A stretch of DNA of 5,182 nt from Nitrososphaerota archaeon (GTDB lineage Archaea > Thermoproteota > Nitrososphaeria > Nitrososphaerales > UBA57), in assembly GCA_013378385.1 (NCBI GenBank), contig JACAFS010000060.1, forward strand, positions 1 to 5,182, in the 5' to 3' direction. The notes under the pieces are model-generated. The model searched no databases. It was given only the letters and a program-made list of their open reading frames with translations, and had not been told where the DNA came from. This document shows, one piece after another, positions 1-5,182 of this stretch; the stretch's first letter is position 1; each line of letters starts with the position of its first letter. Made by a program: the position numbers and the translations under genes.

Positions 1-22
1 AAAATATAATTTTCAAGAATCC

Positions 23-94
23 GAAAAATTTTCAAAAATTGAAAAATTTTCAAAAATCGAAAAATTTTCAAAAATTGAAAAATTTTCAAAAAAA
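23..94. repeat. Tandem array of four 18-bp A/T-rich units GAAAAATTTTCAAAAATY, each carrying the 11-bp palindrome GAAAA-A-TTTTC. A degenerate extra copy lies at about 4-22, and the array may continue beyond the window start.
   Basis: Units at 23-40, 41-58, 59-76 and 77-94 are identical except for the last 1-2 bases (TT / TC / TT / AA). Positions 4-21 match the unit at about 14 of 18. A5 tracts start at 24, 34, 42, 52, 60, 70, 78 and 88, so spacing alternates 10 and 8 bp. The array lies 90 bp upstream of the mdh ATG. Confidence 0.9.
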
Positions 95-183: not shown

Positions 184-1095
184 ATGATTTCAATAATAGG
201 TGCAGGAAATGTAGGAAGCACTGCCGCATTACAAATATTAAGTCACAATCTAGATGATGTAACATTAATAGATATTGCAGAAGGAAAGGCCGAAGGAGAA
301 GCAATGGACTTTTCACAAATGGCATGTGAGATGGGAATTGATAGAAAAATTTTAGGAACTAACGATTTTAGTAAATTAGAAGGATCCGATATAATAATTG
401 TTCCAGCAGGCATGGGAAGAAAACCTGGAGAGACACGTATGGATCTTCTTCATAAGAACATGAGTATTGTAAAATCAGTAGGCGAGAATATTAAAAAATA
501 TTCGCCAGAGTCCATTGTATTGATGATAACAAATCCGCTTGATGCAATGACATATGTTATGTATAAAATATTAGGTGTTAATAGAGAAAAAGTATTTGGA
601 ATGTCAGGTGCATTAGATAATTTAAGATTTAAGAATGTACTTTCAAGTAAATTAAATGTGTCAAGAAAATCAATAACTACATTAGTAATTGGAGAACACG
701 GAGAAGGAATGCTCCCACTTGCTAGATATTCAACAATTAACGGCATACCTTTGAATAAATTTGCCAGCGAGGAGATTTTGAATGAATGTTATGCAGATAC
801 TATTGGTGCAGCTGCAAAAATTATTGGGTTAAAAGGCGCAACATTTTATGCGCCATCTATGGGAATATATTCAATGGTAGAAGCAATAAAATTAGATAAA
901 AGAATTCTCATGCCTGCATCCACTTTCTTAAAAGGAGAATATGGACAAGAAGGAATATGCATAGGAGTTCCAGTAATATTGGGCAGCAATGGAATTGAGA
1001 AGATAATTGAACTTGATCTAAATCAAAAAGAATCAGAACAGTTCAATAAAGGCGTTCAAAACTTAAAAAATGCTGTAAAAGAAACTAATTTGTAA
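184..1095 (+). CDS. mdh: Malate dehydrogenase, LDH-like (archaeal/tetrameric type), 303 aa
   Basis: ATG at 184 and tandem stops TAA TAA at 1093-1098. Motifs seen: Rossmann motif IIGAGNVGS; LIDI..GKAEGEAMD; the loop AGMGRKPGETRMDLL with Arg at the substrate-discriminating position (Arg for oxaloacetate/malate, Gln for pyruvate/lactate in this family); ITNPLD; and the catalytic His in IGEHGE. Confidence 0.9.
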   Translation: MISIIGAGNVGSTAALQILSHNLDDVTLIDIAEGKAEGEAMDFSQMACEMGIDRKILGTNDFSKLEGSDIIIVPAGMGRKPGETRMDLLHKNMSIVKSVGENIKKYSPESIVLMITNPLDAMTYVMYKILGVNREKVFGMSGALDNLRFKNVLSSKLNVSRKSITTLVIGEHGEGMLPLARYSTINGIPLNKFASEEILNECYADTIGAAAKIIGLKGATFYAPSMGIYSMVEAIKLDKRILMPASTFLKGEYGQEGICIGVPVILGSNGIEKIIELDLNQKESEQFNKGVQNLKNAVKETNL

Positions 1096-1246
1096 TAATT
1101 TTACTGCAAGAATCATGTTTTGATTTATGAATAAAGCAGTATATCGTTGAACAAGATTTACATTTAAAGTAATATTCTTTGTTTAGATGTTTACCGCAAT
1201 AATTGCAAATTATTGAATCTAAATCAGTTTGTATCGAACTAATCAT
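1085..1246 (-). CDS. Small (53 aa) cysteine/histidine-rich protein, AN1/HIT-like cross-brace two-zinc finger. Not present in the supplied ORF track.
   Basis: Minus-strand ATG at 1246-1244 and TAG at 1087-1085. There is an in-frame stop upstream at 1291-1289 with no ATG/GTG/TTG in between. Translation: MISSIQTDLDSIICNYCGKHLNKEYYFKCKSCSTIYCFIHKSKHDSCSKIITN. Ligand spacing is C-x2-C-x11-C-x2-C-x4-C-x2-H-x3-H-x2-C. The first six ligands fit the AN1 pattern C-x2-C-x(9-12)-C-x(1-2)-C-x4-C-x2-H-x5-H-x-C. TAATAACTATTTT (minus strand, 1280-1268) lies 22-34 nt upstream of the ATG. T4 and T6 runs follow the stop (A-runs at 1077-1080 and 1065-1070 on the + strand). The ORF overlaps the mdh 3' end by 11 nt, convergently. 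Confidence 0.6.
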   Translation of the reverse strand: MISSIQTDLDSIICNYCGKHLNKEYYFKCKSCSTIYCFIHKSKHDSCSKIITN

Positions 1247-1260: not shown

Positions 1261-1310
1261 ATCCGGGAAAATAGTTATTACGACATGTCTAATATTTCAA
1301 CGAATAAAGT

Positions 1311-1318: not shown

Positions 1319-1897
1319 TTATAGTGAAATTACCTCATCTACTGTGAGTGATAAACGATCAATCAAACGTCTTTCTCTTCTTGATATTCCAGTATTATAA
1401 TCTGAATAAGGAAATTTTGCTCTGAAACAAGTGCCAATAAATGTTGAAGATTTAGAAATAGATTCCATTAGCCAGTGTATAGTTCCCATATGAAGATAAA
1501 AATTTAATTCATTAATGAATAGAAGTCTAGTGGGTCTTTTTCTAAATTTATCTAAACATTCGATGAGGGCACGCGAATTTTGAACAGATAACTGTATTGC
1601 GTCTTTAGGATTATTGGCATATATACGTGGCCAATGAACTACTTCAGGTTTTATATAATTAAAATCACTGATATTATCTATATATTCTGATAATTGCGCT
1701 GCAAATTTAATATTTTTGAATGATGTTTTATCAGGGCACATTTCAATAATAGAAATTCTACTATCATAGTCATTATTGATTGCGTCTTTAATCAAATCAG
1801 CTAGAAAGGCATTTCTGTTAACAGAAATATCACTATCTATACCACCAACAATCAATGTGTTTTTACCAGAATAATAATCAAATGTTTTTTTATTCAA
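1319..1897 (-). CDS. Hypothetical protein, 192 aa. Possible RecA/KaiC-like alpha/beta fold with a degenerate (non-functional) P-loop.
   Basis: Long ORF in an AT-rich context. The start codon called by the track is TTG (1897-1895), two codons after the in-frame stop at 1909-1907, and there is no ATG before Met53. GKNTLIVGGIDSDISVN occupies the place of the strand-then-GxxGxGK[ST] Walker A of RecA/KaiC-like proteins, but the Gly-Lys-Ser/Thr residues are missing. TRLLFINELNFYL resembles a Walker B strand (hhhhD/E). The C-terminal end ...LSLTVDEVISL resembles the family's terminal strand. No family is recognised with certainty. Confidence 0.65.
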   Translation of the reverse strand: MNKKTFDYYSGKNTLIVGGIDSDISVNRNAFLADLIKDAINNDYDSRISIIEMCPDKTSFKNIKFAAQLSEYIDNISDFNYIKPEVVHWPRIYANNPKDAIQLSVQNSRALIECLDKFRKRPTRLLFINELNFYLHMGTIHWLMESISKSSTFIGTCFRAKFPYSDYNTGISRRERRLIDRLSLTVDEVISL

Positions 1898-1933: not shown

Positions 1934-2179
1934 ATGTGGACATTGCTAGCGGTCTATGGAATTGTAACAATCCTTTCAGGCATATTTCTATTGGCAATAA
2001 CTGGAGTTTTTGGAATGGTAATTGGATTAATTGGAGTAATTATGTTAGTGCTTTCAGTATTTCTATCAGCTCCTAAATCTGAACAACCTGATGATCAATC
2101 TAAGAAATATTGTACATATTGCATAGCAGAGATTAACAAAACAGATATTACGTGTCCTATATGTCAGACCGAACAATGA
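1934..2179 (+). CDS. Small membrane protein, 81 aa: two N-terminal TM helices plus a C-terminal CxxC...CxxC zinc ribbon
   Basis: ATG at 1934 and TGA at 2177-2179. Residues 3-46 are two Gly-rich hydrophobic stretches (LLAVYGIVTILSGIFLLAITGVFGMVIGLIGVIMLVLSVFLSA). An acidic linker PKSEQPDDQSKK follows, then C60-x2-C63-x10-C74-x2-C77 (nt 2111-2164). Confidence 0.7.
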   Translation: MWTLLAVYGIVTILSGIFLLAITGVFGMVIGLIGVIMLVLSVFLSAPKSEQPDDQSKKYCTYCIAEINKTDITCPICQTEQ

Positions 2180-3359: not shown

Positions 3360-3413
3360 TATTCAAATGTTGTTTAAAAATTGTTGGAAAAATTAAAATT
3401 TATAATAATAACA

Positions 3414-3475
3414 GGTAGCTCGGTCAAATGCCTTCTCGTCATAATTCTACGTAACTCTGAGTCCTCATTGCTACC
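3414..3475 (-). ncRNA. Candidate archaeal box C/D sRNA (62 nt) with variant boxes
   Basis: The minus strand reads GGUAGC-A-AUGAGGA-CUCAGAGUUACG-UAGA-AUU-AUGACGA-GAAGGCAUUUGA-CCGA-GCUACC. In order these are: a 6-bp terminal stem (3475-3470 pairing with 3419-3414), a C-like box (3468-3462), a 12-nt spacer, a D'-like box (3449-3446), a 3-nt loop, a C'-like box (3442-3436), a 12-nt spacer and a D-like box (3423-3420). All four GA dinucleotides needed for the k-turn and k-loop are present. The region is locally GC-richer than its flanks. TTATAA (3501-3506) is centred about 28 nt upstream of the 5' G. T5 and T4 runs lie downstream (A-runs at 3388-3392 and 3395-3398 on the + strand). Confidence 0.55.
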
Positions 3476-3500
3476 ATGTAATTATCTATCATGATGTTGA

Positions 3501-4163
3501 TTATAAGTTCATATTTTCTTTAACCTGAATTACTCTATTAGCAATATTCAATATACGTTCATCATGAGTAGTAATAAATACAGTTTTTTGATTCATAATT
3601 GAATCTCCTCGAATTAATGACAAAATCATCTCAGAGATTATCGGATCTAAGCCTTCAGTTGGCTCGTCCATTAATAATATCGGAGGGTCATTAACCATAC
3701 TACGTGCGATGGATACAATCTCAGATTCTCCAACACTTAATGTACCGGCTAATCGATCACTAAGAGAAATAAGACCAAGTTTATCTAAAGTTTGATCAAC
3801 AATTGATTGTCGTTTGTTTTTATCAATACCGCTGAACATTAATGGAAGTTCTAAATTTTGTGATATTGATAATTCAGGAACTAGATTTGATTTCTGAGGT
3901 ACTATACCAAATATTTTTGCGCGCAATGTAGATAATTTATCTGGTGAAAGCTTAGTAATATCATACTTATCAATATAGATTCTTCCAGAATCAGGCTTCA
4001 TAATTCCACATATTAAATTAAGTAATGTTGTTTTACCCGAACCAATAGTTCCTTTGGCAGCAATAATTTCACCTGATTGAATTTCTAGATTTACGTTTGA
4101 AAAAATGGTATTATTTTCATAACTCATTGTGATATCCAATAATTTTATTATCGGAATTTGCAT
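3501..4163 (-). CDS. ABC transporter ATP-binding protein, MJ0796/LolD/FtsE/MacB-type, 220 aa
   Basis: ATG at 4163-4161. Motifs seen: Walker A GTIGSGKTT (residues 38-46); Q-loop GIVPQ; signature LSVGESEIVSIARSM (a divergent form of LSGGQ/EQQRVAIARAL); Walker B ILLMDEPT; D-loop EGLD; and H-switch FITTHD. It starts 6 nt after the permease stop codon. Confidence 0.9.
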   Translation of the reverse strand: MQIPIIKLLDITMSYENNTIFSNVNLEIQSGEIIAAKGTIGSGKTTLLNLICGIMKPDSGRIYIDKYDITKLSPDKLSTLRAKIFGIVPQKSNLVPELSISQNLELPLMFSGIDKNKRQSIVDQTLDKLGLISLSDRLAGTLSVGESEIVSIARSMVNDPPILLMDEPTEGLDPIISEMILSLIRGDSIMNQKTVFITTHDERILNIANRVIQVKENMNL

Positions 4164-4169
4164 AGATAA

Positions 4170-4694
4170 TCACTGATATAAATTATTTTGTTTGAATGAT
4201 TGAATAATTGCAGCATATGAACCAATACATATGCCAATAATTGTCAAAATTGAAATATATAATATAGAATTTTGTAATATATTTGGAATAACATTTAGTG
4301 GAAGCTGTAAAGTATATACAACACTTGAGCCAATAATTATACCACAAAATAATCCAATTAAACCAACTATTATGAATCTAGATATTATAATAGAAATTAC
4401 CGAACGAGTCTGTGCTCCAAGTTGATTAAATAACATCAATTTACTTTTTGATGATTCAATAGTTTGCTTTGTAAGTAGATATTCTGAAACAAATACAAAA
4501 CAGAAAGTAATTACACTAGTAAATATAATTCCAGGACCAGTTAACAGACTAGATAATATTATTGCATTAATAGTAGTCATAGCAATTATTAATATTGCAA
4601 GTCTGGATTGGGCTTTACCCATTGTTAATCCAGTAGTAATTAATTCTAATACCAAATTATTACCAGCTAGAATTATTCGAAAGATATTTTCCAA
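4170..4694 (-). CDS. FtsX-like ABC permease, minimal 4-TM form without an extracytoplasmic domain, 174 aa (150 aa if the ATG at 4622 is used)
   Basis: GKAQSRLAILIIAMTTINAIILSSLLTG resembles TM1 of MacB/LolC/FtsX permeases (K.RS.L..LGI.IG.A.VI...SLG.G). It runs directly into an FtsX-domain-like region: ITFCFVFVSEYLLTKQTIESSKSKLMLFNQLGAQTRSVISIIISRFIIVGLIGLFCGIIIG, comparable to ...R.REIGILKALGA.R..I......E.....G..G...G. One more TM helix follows (ILYISILTIIGICIGSYAAII). The start called by the track is TTG (4694-4692), and the first ATG is Met25 at 4622-4620. Confidence 0.75.
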   Translation of the reverse strand: MENIFRIILAGNNLVLELITTGLTMGKAQSRLAILIIAMTTINAIILSSLLTGPGIIFTSVITFCFVFVSEYLLTKQTIESSKSKLMLFNQLGAQTRSVISIIISRFIIVGLIGLFCGIIIGSSVVYTLQLPLNVIPNILQNSILYISILTIIGICIGSYAAIIQSFKQNNLYQ

Positions 4695-5182
4695 CCGTTA
4701 TCAGTACGTTCAGATTTAGGCATTGGTTTATGTTCTTTATTTGTATCAGGTTTATTATCAGGAATTGATCCATCTTCCATAGGACTTAGATCAGGATGTT
4801 TATTTGCAAAATCTGTAATTTTTGAAATAAATGAATCAGTAGAATCATTATTCTCAGGTTCCTCAAATAATTTAAAATCAGTGTGTTTATCATCATTTGA
4901 TGTTTCTATTTCACTTGCAGCGGCATGAGGACGTTCAGTAATAATAAATGGATGTGATTCAGGTTCAAATTCTGGATCAATAGGTACGATAGTAGGATGA
5001 ATTTCTTTATCTTCTGTAATAGTGTCAGGACCGTCTTCAATTATTTTATTCTGATTCATAAGTAATCCTGAATCAGGATTATAATCTGGTTCTACAATTG
5101 GTTCTGGTTCTACAATTGGTTCTGGTTCTACAATTGGTTCTGGTTCTACAATTGGTTCTGGTTCTACAATTGGTTCTGGTTC
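4673..5182 (-). CDS. Acidic Glu/Asp/Pro-rich low-complexity protein with N-proximal perfect (EPEPIV)n repeats. 5'-partial, since the ORF is open to the window edge.
   Basis: The track ORF starts at ATG 5059, but the same frame stays open for all 41 codons up to 5182. That stretch reads EP(EPIVEP)x5-DYNPDSGLL-MNQNK... The unique part contains a degenerate echo of the repeat (HPTIVPIDPEFEPESHP), which argues that the repeat is translated. Stop TAA at 4675-4673. There is no recognisable catalytic motif. Confidence 0.6.
   Translation of the reverse strand, partial: EPEPIVEPEPIVEPEPIVEPEPIVEPEPIVEPDYNPDSGLLMNQNKIIEDGPDTITEDKEIHPTIVPIDPEFEPESHPFIITERPHAAASEIETSNDDKHTDFKLFEEPENNDSTDSFISKITDFANKHPDLSPMEDGSIPDNKPDTNKEHKPMPKSERTDNGWKISFE
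5063..5081. repeat. Perfect inverted repeat TAATCCTG-AAT-CAGGATTA (8-bp arms, 3-nt centre), 3 nt upstream of the internal ATG at 5059 and at the junction of the repeat array with unique sequence
   Basis: Arms at 5063-5070 and 5074-5081 are exact reverse complements. The repeat lies in-frame within the open reading frame, encoding YNPDSGL. Confidence 0.8.
5087..5182. repeat. Perfect 18-bp tandem repeat TGGTTCTACAATTGGTTC, 5.3 copies, truncated by the window end
   Basis: Units at 5087-5104, 5105-5122, 5123-5140, 5141-5158 and 5159-5176, plus a partial unit at 5177-5182, with no mismatch. The internal substructure is TGGTTC / TACAAT / TGGTTC. The minus-strand translation is EPIVEP per unit. Confidence 0.95.

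Follow-up and report, generated by a model that had tools for sequence, protein, structure and literature searches.

AN1, ZZ, B-box and RING-like zinc fingers are typically eukaryotic and are tied to ubiquitin, the proteasome and helicase complexes. Within TFIIH, a repair and transcription complex that contains helicases, the C-terminal finger of subunit p44 mediates protein-protein interactions. Archaea have stand-alone zinc binders of ~50-60 aa, the HVO_2753-type micro-proteins of Haloferax, which annotation often overlooks or leaves without a name. An AN1 domain has been characterized through its binding to the proteasome and Cdc48; AN1 is a Cys6His2 domain with the ligand order CC-CC-CH-HC and two cross-braced clusters, and a conserved Phe directly before the penultimate Cys lies between the two zinc sites (PMC5035049). 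Here we analyze a short open reading frame (ORF) in a 5,182-nt stretch of DNA from a Nitrososphaerota archaeon (assembly GCA_013378385.1, contig JACAFS010000060.1), hereafter called the window. Our analyses revealed that minus-strand positions 1085..1246 very probably hold a real gene encoding a two-zinc finger, whose family is AN1-like without being a Pfam-level member of any known family.

The 53-codon reading frame convergent with mdh

The original prediction had placed a 53-codon ORF, running from ATG to TAG on the minus strand, in the gap downstream of the malate/lactate dehydrogenase gene (mdh), and both coordinates and translation confirm it. The ORF 1085..1246 translates to MISSIQTDLDSIICNYCGKHLNKEYYFKCKSCSTIYCFIHKSKHDSCSKIITN; an in-frame stop lies upstream, and the ATG at 1246 is the earliest start codon. 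The product contains the Cys and His residues C14, C17, H20, C29, C32, C37, H40, H44 and C47. H20 is not conserved, and the remaining residues form the pattern C-x2-C-x11-C-x2-C-x4-C-x2-H-x3-H-x2-C, exactly the eight-ligand spacing that had been predicted. The locus comprises the following features:

1085..1246, minus strand: coding sequence of the 53-aa zinc-finger protein (ATG 1246..1244, TAG 1087..1085), from the ORF listing, translation, synteny and the ratio of nonsynonymous to synonymous substitution rates (dN/dS)
1106..1207, minus strand: zinc-finger core, residues C14 to C47, from the invariance of the ligands and Tyr36 and the low ratio of nonsynonymous to synonymous differences per site (pN/pS) in the core
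1085..1095, unstranded: convergent 3' overlap of 11 nt between the zinc-finger gene and mdh, from the ORF coordinates
184..1095, plus strand: malate/lactate dehydrogenase gene (mdh), the convergent neighbor (Pfam Ldh_1_N 1.5e-38, Ldh_1_C 1.2e-25)
1319..1897, minus strand: gene for a 192-aa protein, co-directional with the zinc-finger gene, its stop 72 nt before the zinc-finger ATG

The ORF occupies a gap of 223 bp with 24.7% GC, bounded by the stop codons of mdh (1095) and of the 192-aa gene (1319). Its overlap with mdh takes in the stop codon, N53, T52 and two bases of I51; the prediction that the last three codons and the stop overlap mdh was therefore nearly exact, I51 being the codon that overlaps by two bases only. 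The same 11-nt overlap recurs in loci L001 (genes 3905-4072 and 4062-4973) and L022.

Length alone makes the ORF only mildly unusual, as 2.2% of shuffles of the 280-nt region contain an ATG-initiated ORF of 53 aa or more; it is because the ORF is conserved that we regard it as more than chance. Six contigs from marine metagenomes carry a called homolog (P0001, 55 aa, 73% identity) at the equivalent position, in the order ABC ATPase, aminotransferase, 81-aa gene, 192-aa gene, zinc finger and convergent mdh, again overlapping mdh by 11 nt, and a further lineage represented by P0003 (55% identical) shows the same synteny. For an unbiased test of synteny, loci were retrieved through mdh and not through the zinc-finger ORF. 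The ORF was open at the equivalent position in five of five close reference metagenome-assembled genomes (MAGs), whose mdh products are 82-94% identical, and it was not kept in the mdh-retrieved locus of a Nitrosopumilaceae genome with an mdh 48% identical. The arrangement of 192-aa gene, zinc finger and convergent mdh, with an open frame, was found in loci L001-L006, L007-L011 and L022/L023. Altogether, the position of the ORF is shared by eight diverged lineages, all of them heterotrophic marine (pSL12-like) Thaumarchaeota.

Substitution patterns in these lineages are those of a coding sequence. Nei-Gojobori dN/dS was 0.06-0.41 in all 21 pairs, with dS often >1 and synonymous sites near saturation, and pN/pS of the C14-H44 core was 0.02-0.38 (28 pairs). 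Ligand codons swap synonymously between TGC and TGT and between CAT and CAC while the residue is unchanged, variable alignment columns fall at codon positions 1, 2 and 3 in the numbers 20, 18 and 33, and the ORF diverges at about the rate of its 192-aa and 81-aa neighbors. Judged from these alignments, the ORF is under purifying selection. Conserved ligands and a dN/dS below 1 in relatives had been proposed beforehand as a check on the gene, and both were obtained.

Could the frame nevertheless be no gene at all, a chance ORF in AT-rich intergenic DNA whose conservation is due to a regulatory element overlapping it, to a terminator of mdh or to a noncoding RNA? The 2.2% of shuffles that reach equal length and the absence of the window's exact product from a 15-billion-protein collection lend this idea something. 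Set against it are the open frame in eight diverged lineages at the dN/dS values above, with variation mostly at third positions, and the preservation of ligand residues through synonymous codon swaps. Synteny and dN/dS rule out a chance ORF, and the lack of any family match when the gap was searched against Rfam rules out a known structured RNA. In addition, distant Nitrososphaerota homologs sit in unrelated genomic contexts, and therefore a local regulatory element cannot account for the conservation. We consider this explanation scarcely credible.

The relatives of the host include 'Thaumarchaeota archaeon isolate ATL', UBA223 and ASW2_bin45, the last a pSL12-like MAG (bioRxiv 10.1101/2019.12.22.886556). 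The host is a heterotrophic marine thaumarchaeon of the HMT (heterotrophic marine Thaumarchaea) or pSL12-like lineage. HMT MAGs have genomes estimated at ~0.84-1.05 Mbp (PMC7300363), and isolate ATL is tied to them by a name match only. That the gene is kept in such strongly streamlined genomes of ~1 Mbp argues that it is useful. In this small-genome lineage, a seemingly empty stretch of DNA proves to contain a real, conserved gene. The description of the gene as hidden and unannotated holds in part: gene callers have already predicted homologs in many assemblies, although these are mostly unnamed or 'hypothetical'. As the homologs are already called and the product is a recognizable variant of a well-known fold class, we regard the finding as solid but modest. 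It also shows that short ORFs (50-60 aa) overlapping a convergent gene merit a profile of their own.

Two conserved blocks lie within the 72 nt that separate the stop of the 192-aa gene from the zinc-finger ATG:

1271..1279, minus strand: AT-rich block AATAACTAT, at -33..-25 from the ATG, a candidate TATA box conserved across lineages
1285..1291, minus strand: second conserved block, TAGACAT (T[TA]GAC[AT]T), at -45..-39, a candidate BRE-like (transcription factor B recognition element) or regulatory element

The first block (AATAAYTAT) recurs in most of the eight marine lineages, and T[TA]GAC[AT]T is kept in eight of eight, including L022, whose protein is 55% identical. Archaeal TATA boxes are centered ~26-27 nt upstream of the transcription start, and by this distance the position of the AT-rich block places the start at or very near the ATG. 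The transcript would then be leaderless or have a very short leader. An AT-rich element at about -22 to -34 with leaderless geometry had been proposed, and it is indeed present with AATAACTAT as its conserved core, at a distance that fits leaderless or near-leaderless transcription. The zinc-finger gene thus probably has its own promoter, a reading that stays suggestive because comparable AT-rich stretches accompany other genes in the window. The T-runs reported after the stop are also present; as evidence of a terminator they are not independent, because the opposite strand codes for mdh there.

An AN1-like family of archaeal micro-proteins

An exhaustive HMMER search of 1.84 billion representatives returned 25 proteins at E <= 1e-3, and a profile search returned 75 matches, all from Thaumarchaeota/Nitrososphaerota and none with a precomputed Pfam domain. 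The long multi-repeat matches of the exhaustive search (P0007, P0010, P0011 and P0024) were set aside as uninformative, being compositional matches to Cys-rich or fn3 proteins. Named members are all 'hypothetical protein' except for one IMG entry, titled 'predicted nucleic acid binding AN1-type Zn finger protein', a name carried over untested from an orthologous-group annotation. NCBIfam and PADLOC searches with the zinc-finger protein returned nothing. The family, 120 distinct sequences so far, is by its sequence matches restricted to Nitrososphaerota and is uncharacterized; no curated Pfam or NCBIfam model captures it, and the gene has no name.

Alignment of 26 sequences showed that C14, C17, C29, C32, Y36, C37, H40 and H44 are invariant. 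The spacing of the first seven ligands is kept in 120 of the 120 distinct sequences, and each of these also has an eighth Cys or His 0-4 residues past H44 (Cys in 90, His in 30). Within the marine clade alone, this last position takes the forms H-x2-C, H-x1-C, H-x2-H and H-x1-H. Such shifts are the behavior expected of a real, sterically tolerant metal ligand, and the alignments thereby define a lineage-restricted, AN1-like two-zinc finger family with an unusually flexible eighth ligand. Two subfamilies can be told apart: subfamily A members are longer and Arg-rich and have a tail ending in SSANV, and subfamily B consists of short forms, including the window protein, which lacks that tail. Across the family, 59 of the 120 distinct sequences end in SANV (mostly SSANV), with a hydrophobic 'LLLAG'-like patch before the motif.

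Profile comparisons point to AN1 as the nearest Pfam family. The window protein matched zf-AN1 (PF01428) with E 0.01 and 16.4 bits, residues 14-45 aligning to positions 1-32 of the 40-position model, and zf-AN1 was the top Pfam family in 24 of the 26 members (best E 2.5e-4). The AN1 search foreseen in the original prediction thus gave the expected top match, at a score below the Pfam threshold, which signifies resemblance and not membership. The zf-HIT half of the proposed label found little support. The window protein had no zf-HIT match at E <= 10, only two of 26 members had one (best E 0.033), and the HIT chain 1x4s reached E 0.31 against the family profile; we therefore rejected a HIT finger.

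The AN1 consensus spacing is C-x2-C-x(9-12)-C-x(1-2)-C-x4-C-x2-H-x5-H-x-C, and it is also seen in the AN1 chains of the PDB. The first six ligands of the family fit it (x2, x11, x2, x4, x2), as they do in the AN1 domains of ZNF216/ZFAND5 (1wfl), plant SAP (1wfp/1wfh) and yeast Cuz1 (5IJ4). The AN1 ligand order CC-CC-CH-HC is likewise found, as C14, C17 / C29, C32 / C37, H40 / H44, C47, and the aromatic residue before the fifth ligand is present as Tyr36, which adjoins C37, is invariant in the 26 sequences and stands where AN1 has Phe. The two groups differ in the terminal spacing and in the eighth ligand, which may be His in the family. They also differ in setting: family members are stand-alone archaeal proteins of 50-116 aa, whereas AN1 is a domain of larger eukaryotic proteins.

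Profile-profile alignments were made with hhalign, using authentic AN1 and ZZ sequences taken from PDB alignments as templates. Against three PDB AN1 domains, the family reached a probability of 42% (P 2.6e-4) over ligands 1-6 only. This agrees with the original prediction of an AN1 match through the first six ligands and a differing tail, as the alignment ends after ligand six. Plant AN1 domains gave probabilities of 62-65%. As a control, the Cys/His positions of each template were held fixed and everything else was shuffled, 200 times per template; the real score was reached by 1 of 200 shuffles for AN1 1wfh, 2 of 200 for AN1 1wfp and 55 of 200 for the ZNF216 AN1.

The p44 finger appears at least as close to the family as AN1. 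It gave the best full-domain alignment in the PDB search (E 0.06, not significant) and the best single-template hhalign score (25.5, probability 69%, P 4.3e-5, 34 columns), which none of 200 ligand-fixed shuffles reached; the p44-finger family was absent among the top Pfam families of the 26 members. In p44 (GTF2H2; PDB 1z60, 5o85_B), the spacing over the first six ligand positions, C-x2-C-x11-C-x2-C-x4-C-x2-[C/H], is the same as in the family. However, p44 has Cys at the sixth position, and a 5-residue insertion is needed to align the His pair. Its finger forms the C-terminal domain of a larger eukaryotic protein (395 aa), unlike the stand-alone family.

An AlphaFold2 (AF2) model of the window protein had a predicted local distance difference test (pLDDT) score of 73, with 78-85 in the core, and comprised two short strands, a helix at 38-44 and a C-terminal strand. 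In Foldseek comparisons the model resembled ZZ, B-box and AN1 cross-brace domains with template modeling (TM) scores of 0.5-0.68; the best structural matches were ZZ and B-box (TM 0.58-0.68, probability up to 0.99). The ZZ domains (p300 6ds6, p62/SQSTM1 5ype, CBP 1tot) and B-box domains (PML 6imq, TRIM5alpha 5k3q) are also cross-braced two-zinc domains of ~45-50 residues, and they differ from the family in having a C4-C2H2 ligand set. The p62 ZZ domain reached an hhalign probability of 6% over 20 columns and four ligands only, and 25 of 200 shuffles did as well. ZZ kinship was therefore rejected as fold resemblance only, the sequence similarity being not above that from ligand spacing alone. 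HVO_2753-type proteins (PF07754) belong to a different fold class, of paired C(P)xCG zinc knuckles or ribbons, and neither the window protein nor the family matched the PF07754 model.

The cross-brace matches of the predicted model are consistent with two bound zincs in the 53-aa protein, a putative zinc binder. By analogy with the AN1 topology (PMC5035049), Zn1 would be held by C14, C17, C37 and H40, and Zn2 by C29, C32, H44 and C47. Taken together, these comparisons set the family apart as a distinct one within the binuclear cross-brace treble-clef class, at roughly the same distance from AN1 as from the p44-type finger.

Possible docking or nucleic-acid binding, and genomic context

As an explanation of the whole locus we favor, with a probability of about 0.6, a genuine gene, probably with its own promoter, whose product is a single AN1-type cross-braced finger that serves as a protein-docking adaptor. 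The mechanism within this explanation, a small docking adaptor or regulatory subunit, is drawn by analogy and is put forward tentatively, at clearly less than even odds. The 53-aa product would be almost entirely one binuclear cross-braced treble-clef finger, with Tyr36 packed between the two metal sites like the conserved Phe of AN1. As almost nothing lies outside the finger, the protein could only be a binding module. The finger would dock on a larger protein machine, much as the AN1 fingers of Cuz1 and ZFAND proteins act on the proteasome and Cdc48 and the p44 finger acts inside TFIIH. In this genome, the first candidate for a partner would be the co-directional 192-aa protein, and the coupling of the sister subfamily A to the HerA ATPase would point to docking as well.

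That coupling was found in one soil clade. There, nurA is followed by a herA gene of 503-505 aa, whose stop is overlapped by 4 bp by a subfamily A gene:

L016 4001-4261: subfamily A gene overlapping herA
L018 4001-4351: subfamily A gene overlapping herA
L019 4001-4195: subfamily A gene overlapping herA
L024 3501-3824: subfamily A gene overlapping herA
L028 3501-3794: subfamily A gene overlapping herA

The order nurA-herA-zinc finger-HTH_3-DUF92 recurs in this clade. Both assignments pass their Pfam thresholds (HerA 32.8 vs 23.2 bits, NurA 23.0 vs 21), and the PADLOC HerA models agree. A literature search returned nothing on a HerA/NurA-linked zinc finger in Thaumarchaeota or on archaeal AN1 micro-proteins. 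Stand-alone archaeal relatives of these fingers, with one branch in a nurA-herA operon, offer a simple system for pre-eukaryotic roles of such fingers, and the herA-nurA-coupled sister subfamily with its SSANV tail, in other genomes, is the more interesting lead.

The herA-linked loci also showed two peculiarities. Their zinc-finger proteins vary in length with the tail, from 64 to 116 aa, despite HerA identities of 90-96%. At L025 (1367-3504), the nurA and herA genes are broken up into four ORFs (216, 158, 203 and 116 aa) that are 83-92% identical to intact copies, reflecting either frameshift assembly errors or pseudogenization; the zinc-finger gene there is intact and overlaps the last nurA/herA fragment.

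The 192-aa gene precedes the zinc-finger gene in every marine lineage, and its product has homologs (50-99% identical) only in the HMT/pSL12 clade and no Pfam family. Foldseek searches with its AF2 model (pLDDT 58) returned only RecA-fold hexameric ATPases (KaiC, Rho and the C-terminal domain of DnaB, DnaB-C) at TM ~0.4. The protein lacks the Walker A lysine and has a Walker-B-like motif, LLFINE, and on this modeling it may be a degenerate RecA-fold pseudo-ATPase. The zinc-finger gene of the window is not herA-linked; the product of the gene upstream of it was not significantly similar to HerA. A bolder proposal, which we consider clearly unlikely, is that these Nitrososphaerota-specific binuclear treble-clef micro-proteins are dedicated small subunits of RecA-fold hexameric ATPases. 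If so, in soil lineages they would work with HerA, part of the HerA-NurA machine for end resection, the genes being apparently translationally coupled; the marine HMT partner would be the clade-specific, Walker-A-less RecA-like 192-aa protein; and the micro-proteins would do in archaea what AN1 and p44 fingers do in eukaryotes, where these plug into Cdc48/proteasome and TFIIH.

Several results weigh against the AN1-type docking adaptor. The window protein (16.4 bits) falls short of the Pfam AN1 gathering score of 27.9 bits, as all 26 members fall below that threshold, and the family tail, H-x3-H-x(0-4)-[C/H], departs from the AN1 H-x5-H-x-C. The family profile retrieved no significant chain from all PDB sequences and no AN1 chain at E <= 10, and the Foldseek E-values were all >0.1. 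In the AF2 model H40 and H44 lie on one helix, which leaves room for an alternative ligand pairing. As regards partners, the HerA coupling comes from a single clade and from subfamily A, not from the window's subfamily B; because HerA is at least 90% identical in all HerA-linked loci, these count as one lineage. Subfamily B contexts vary, including PGK/GAPDH, a Fer2 protein and a conserved 46-55-aa ORF, and HerA coupling as a family-wide rule was accordingly rejected. The RecA-like fold of the 192-aa protein comes from a weak model (pLDDT and TM as above), and its comparison with HerA was not significant (BLASTP E 4.5; hhalign probability 0.2%). With these values and no PDB sequence match, the 192-aa protein as a truncated HerA was also rejected.

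The shortfalls in AN1 score and tail spacing also tell against another possibility, that the protein is a divergent true AN1 member doing the ZFAND/Cuz1 job on the archaeal proteasome or a Cdc48-type AAA+ unfoldase under stress. Its attractions are the rank of zf-AN1 as top family in nearly all members, the shared ligand order and aromatic residue, and the plant AN1 alignments, which score above ligand-fixed shuffles. Yet the ZNF216 AN1 does not rise above what ligand spacing gives by itself, p44 equals or exceeds AN1 in score, and no proteasome or Cdc48 gene adjoins any family member examined. We regard this possibility as clearly unlikely.

The main alternative to docking is that the protein is a small nucleic-acid-binding finger acting directly on DNA or RNA, for example as a regulator or as an accessory to DNA-end or single-stranded DNA repair. 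The charge of the window protein (7 Lys vs 4 Asp/Glu) would suit this role, as would the very Arg-rich subfamily A, encoded between nurA-herA and an HTH_3 regulator gene, and the title of the IMG entry names such a function. Positive charge alone, however, is weak evidence, and the IMG title is a transferred label. No DNA-binding family was matched in the Pfam and NCBIfam searches, and an AN1 domain is characterized through its protein partners, the proteasome and Cdc48 (PMC5035049). Direct nucleic-acid binding appears less likely than not, though only a little less likely than docking, and we retain the docking adaptor as the favored explanation.

Other features of the window and of related loci

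Subfamily B genes at two loci are preceded by the 46-55-aa ORF mentioned above (L026 3353-3493, L031 1049-1216), which contains EEQLLRELRVLYANRPMQFTKLIMKYYKGERAK and is 80% identical between the loci. It lies directly upstream of, and co-directional with, the subfamily B gene, and a divergent conserved gene for a 148-150-aa protein lies beyond it.

In the window itself, positions 1934..2179 (plus strand) hold the 81-aa ORF, whose product has a hydrophobic N-terminal half and a C-terminal CxxC...CxxC. It gave sub-threshold RING and zinc-ribbon matches and is conserved, with 52-91% identity within the clade, making it a second small unannotated candidate for zinc binding.

An element of ~67 nt, TGGTAGCAATGAGGACTCAGAGTTACGTAGAATTATGACGAGAAGGCATTTGACCGAGCTACC, lies at 3410..3476 (minus strand) in the intergenic gap 3360..3500. 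It is 87-98% identical across six HMT lineages between which the synonymous sites of the zinc-finger gene are saturated. The element has a 6-bp terminal stem (GGUAGC/GCUACC), the box-like motifs AUGAGGA, AUGACGA and CCGA, and two 12-nt spacers. It scored 21.6 bits against Rfam sR17, which has a gathering score of 36, and its predicted pairs are all invariant, giving no covariation. From these features it is probably a C/D-box small RNA with non-canonical boxes.

Two 18-nt tandem arrays lie near the ends of the window. A perfect array of 5.4 copies, TCTGGTTCTACAATTGGT, occupies 5085..5182 and reaches the window end; read on the minus strand it encodes an in-frame (EPEPIV)n upstream of a 128-aa acidic ORF at 4673..5059, and the acidic protein may therefore exceed its listed length. 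The second array, AATTTTCAAAAATCGAAA, has 4.7 copies at 8..92 and lies ~90 nt upstream of mdh.

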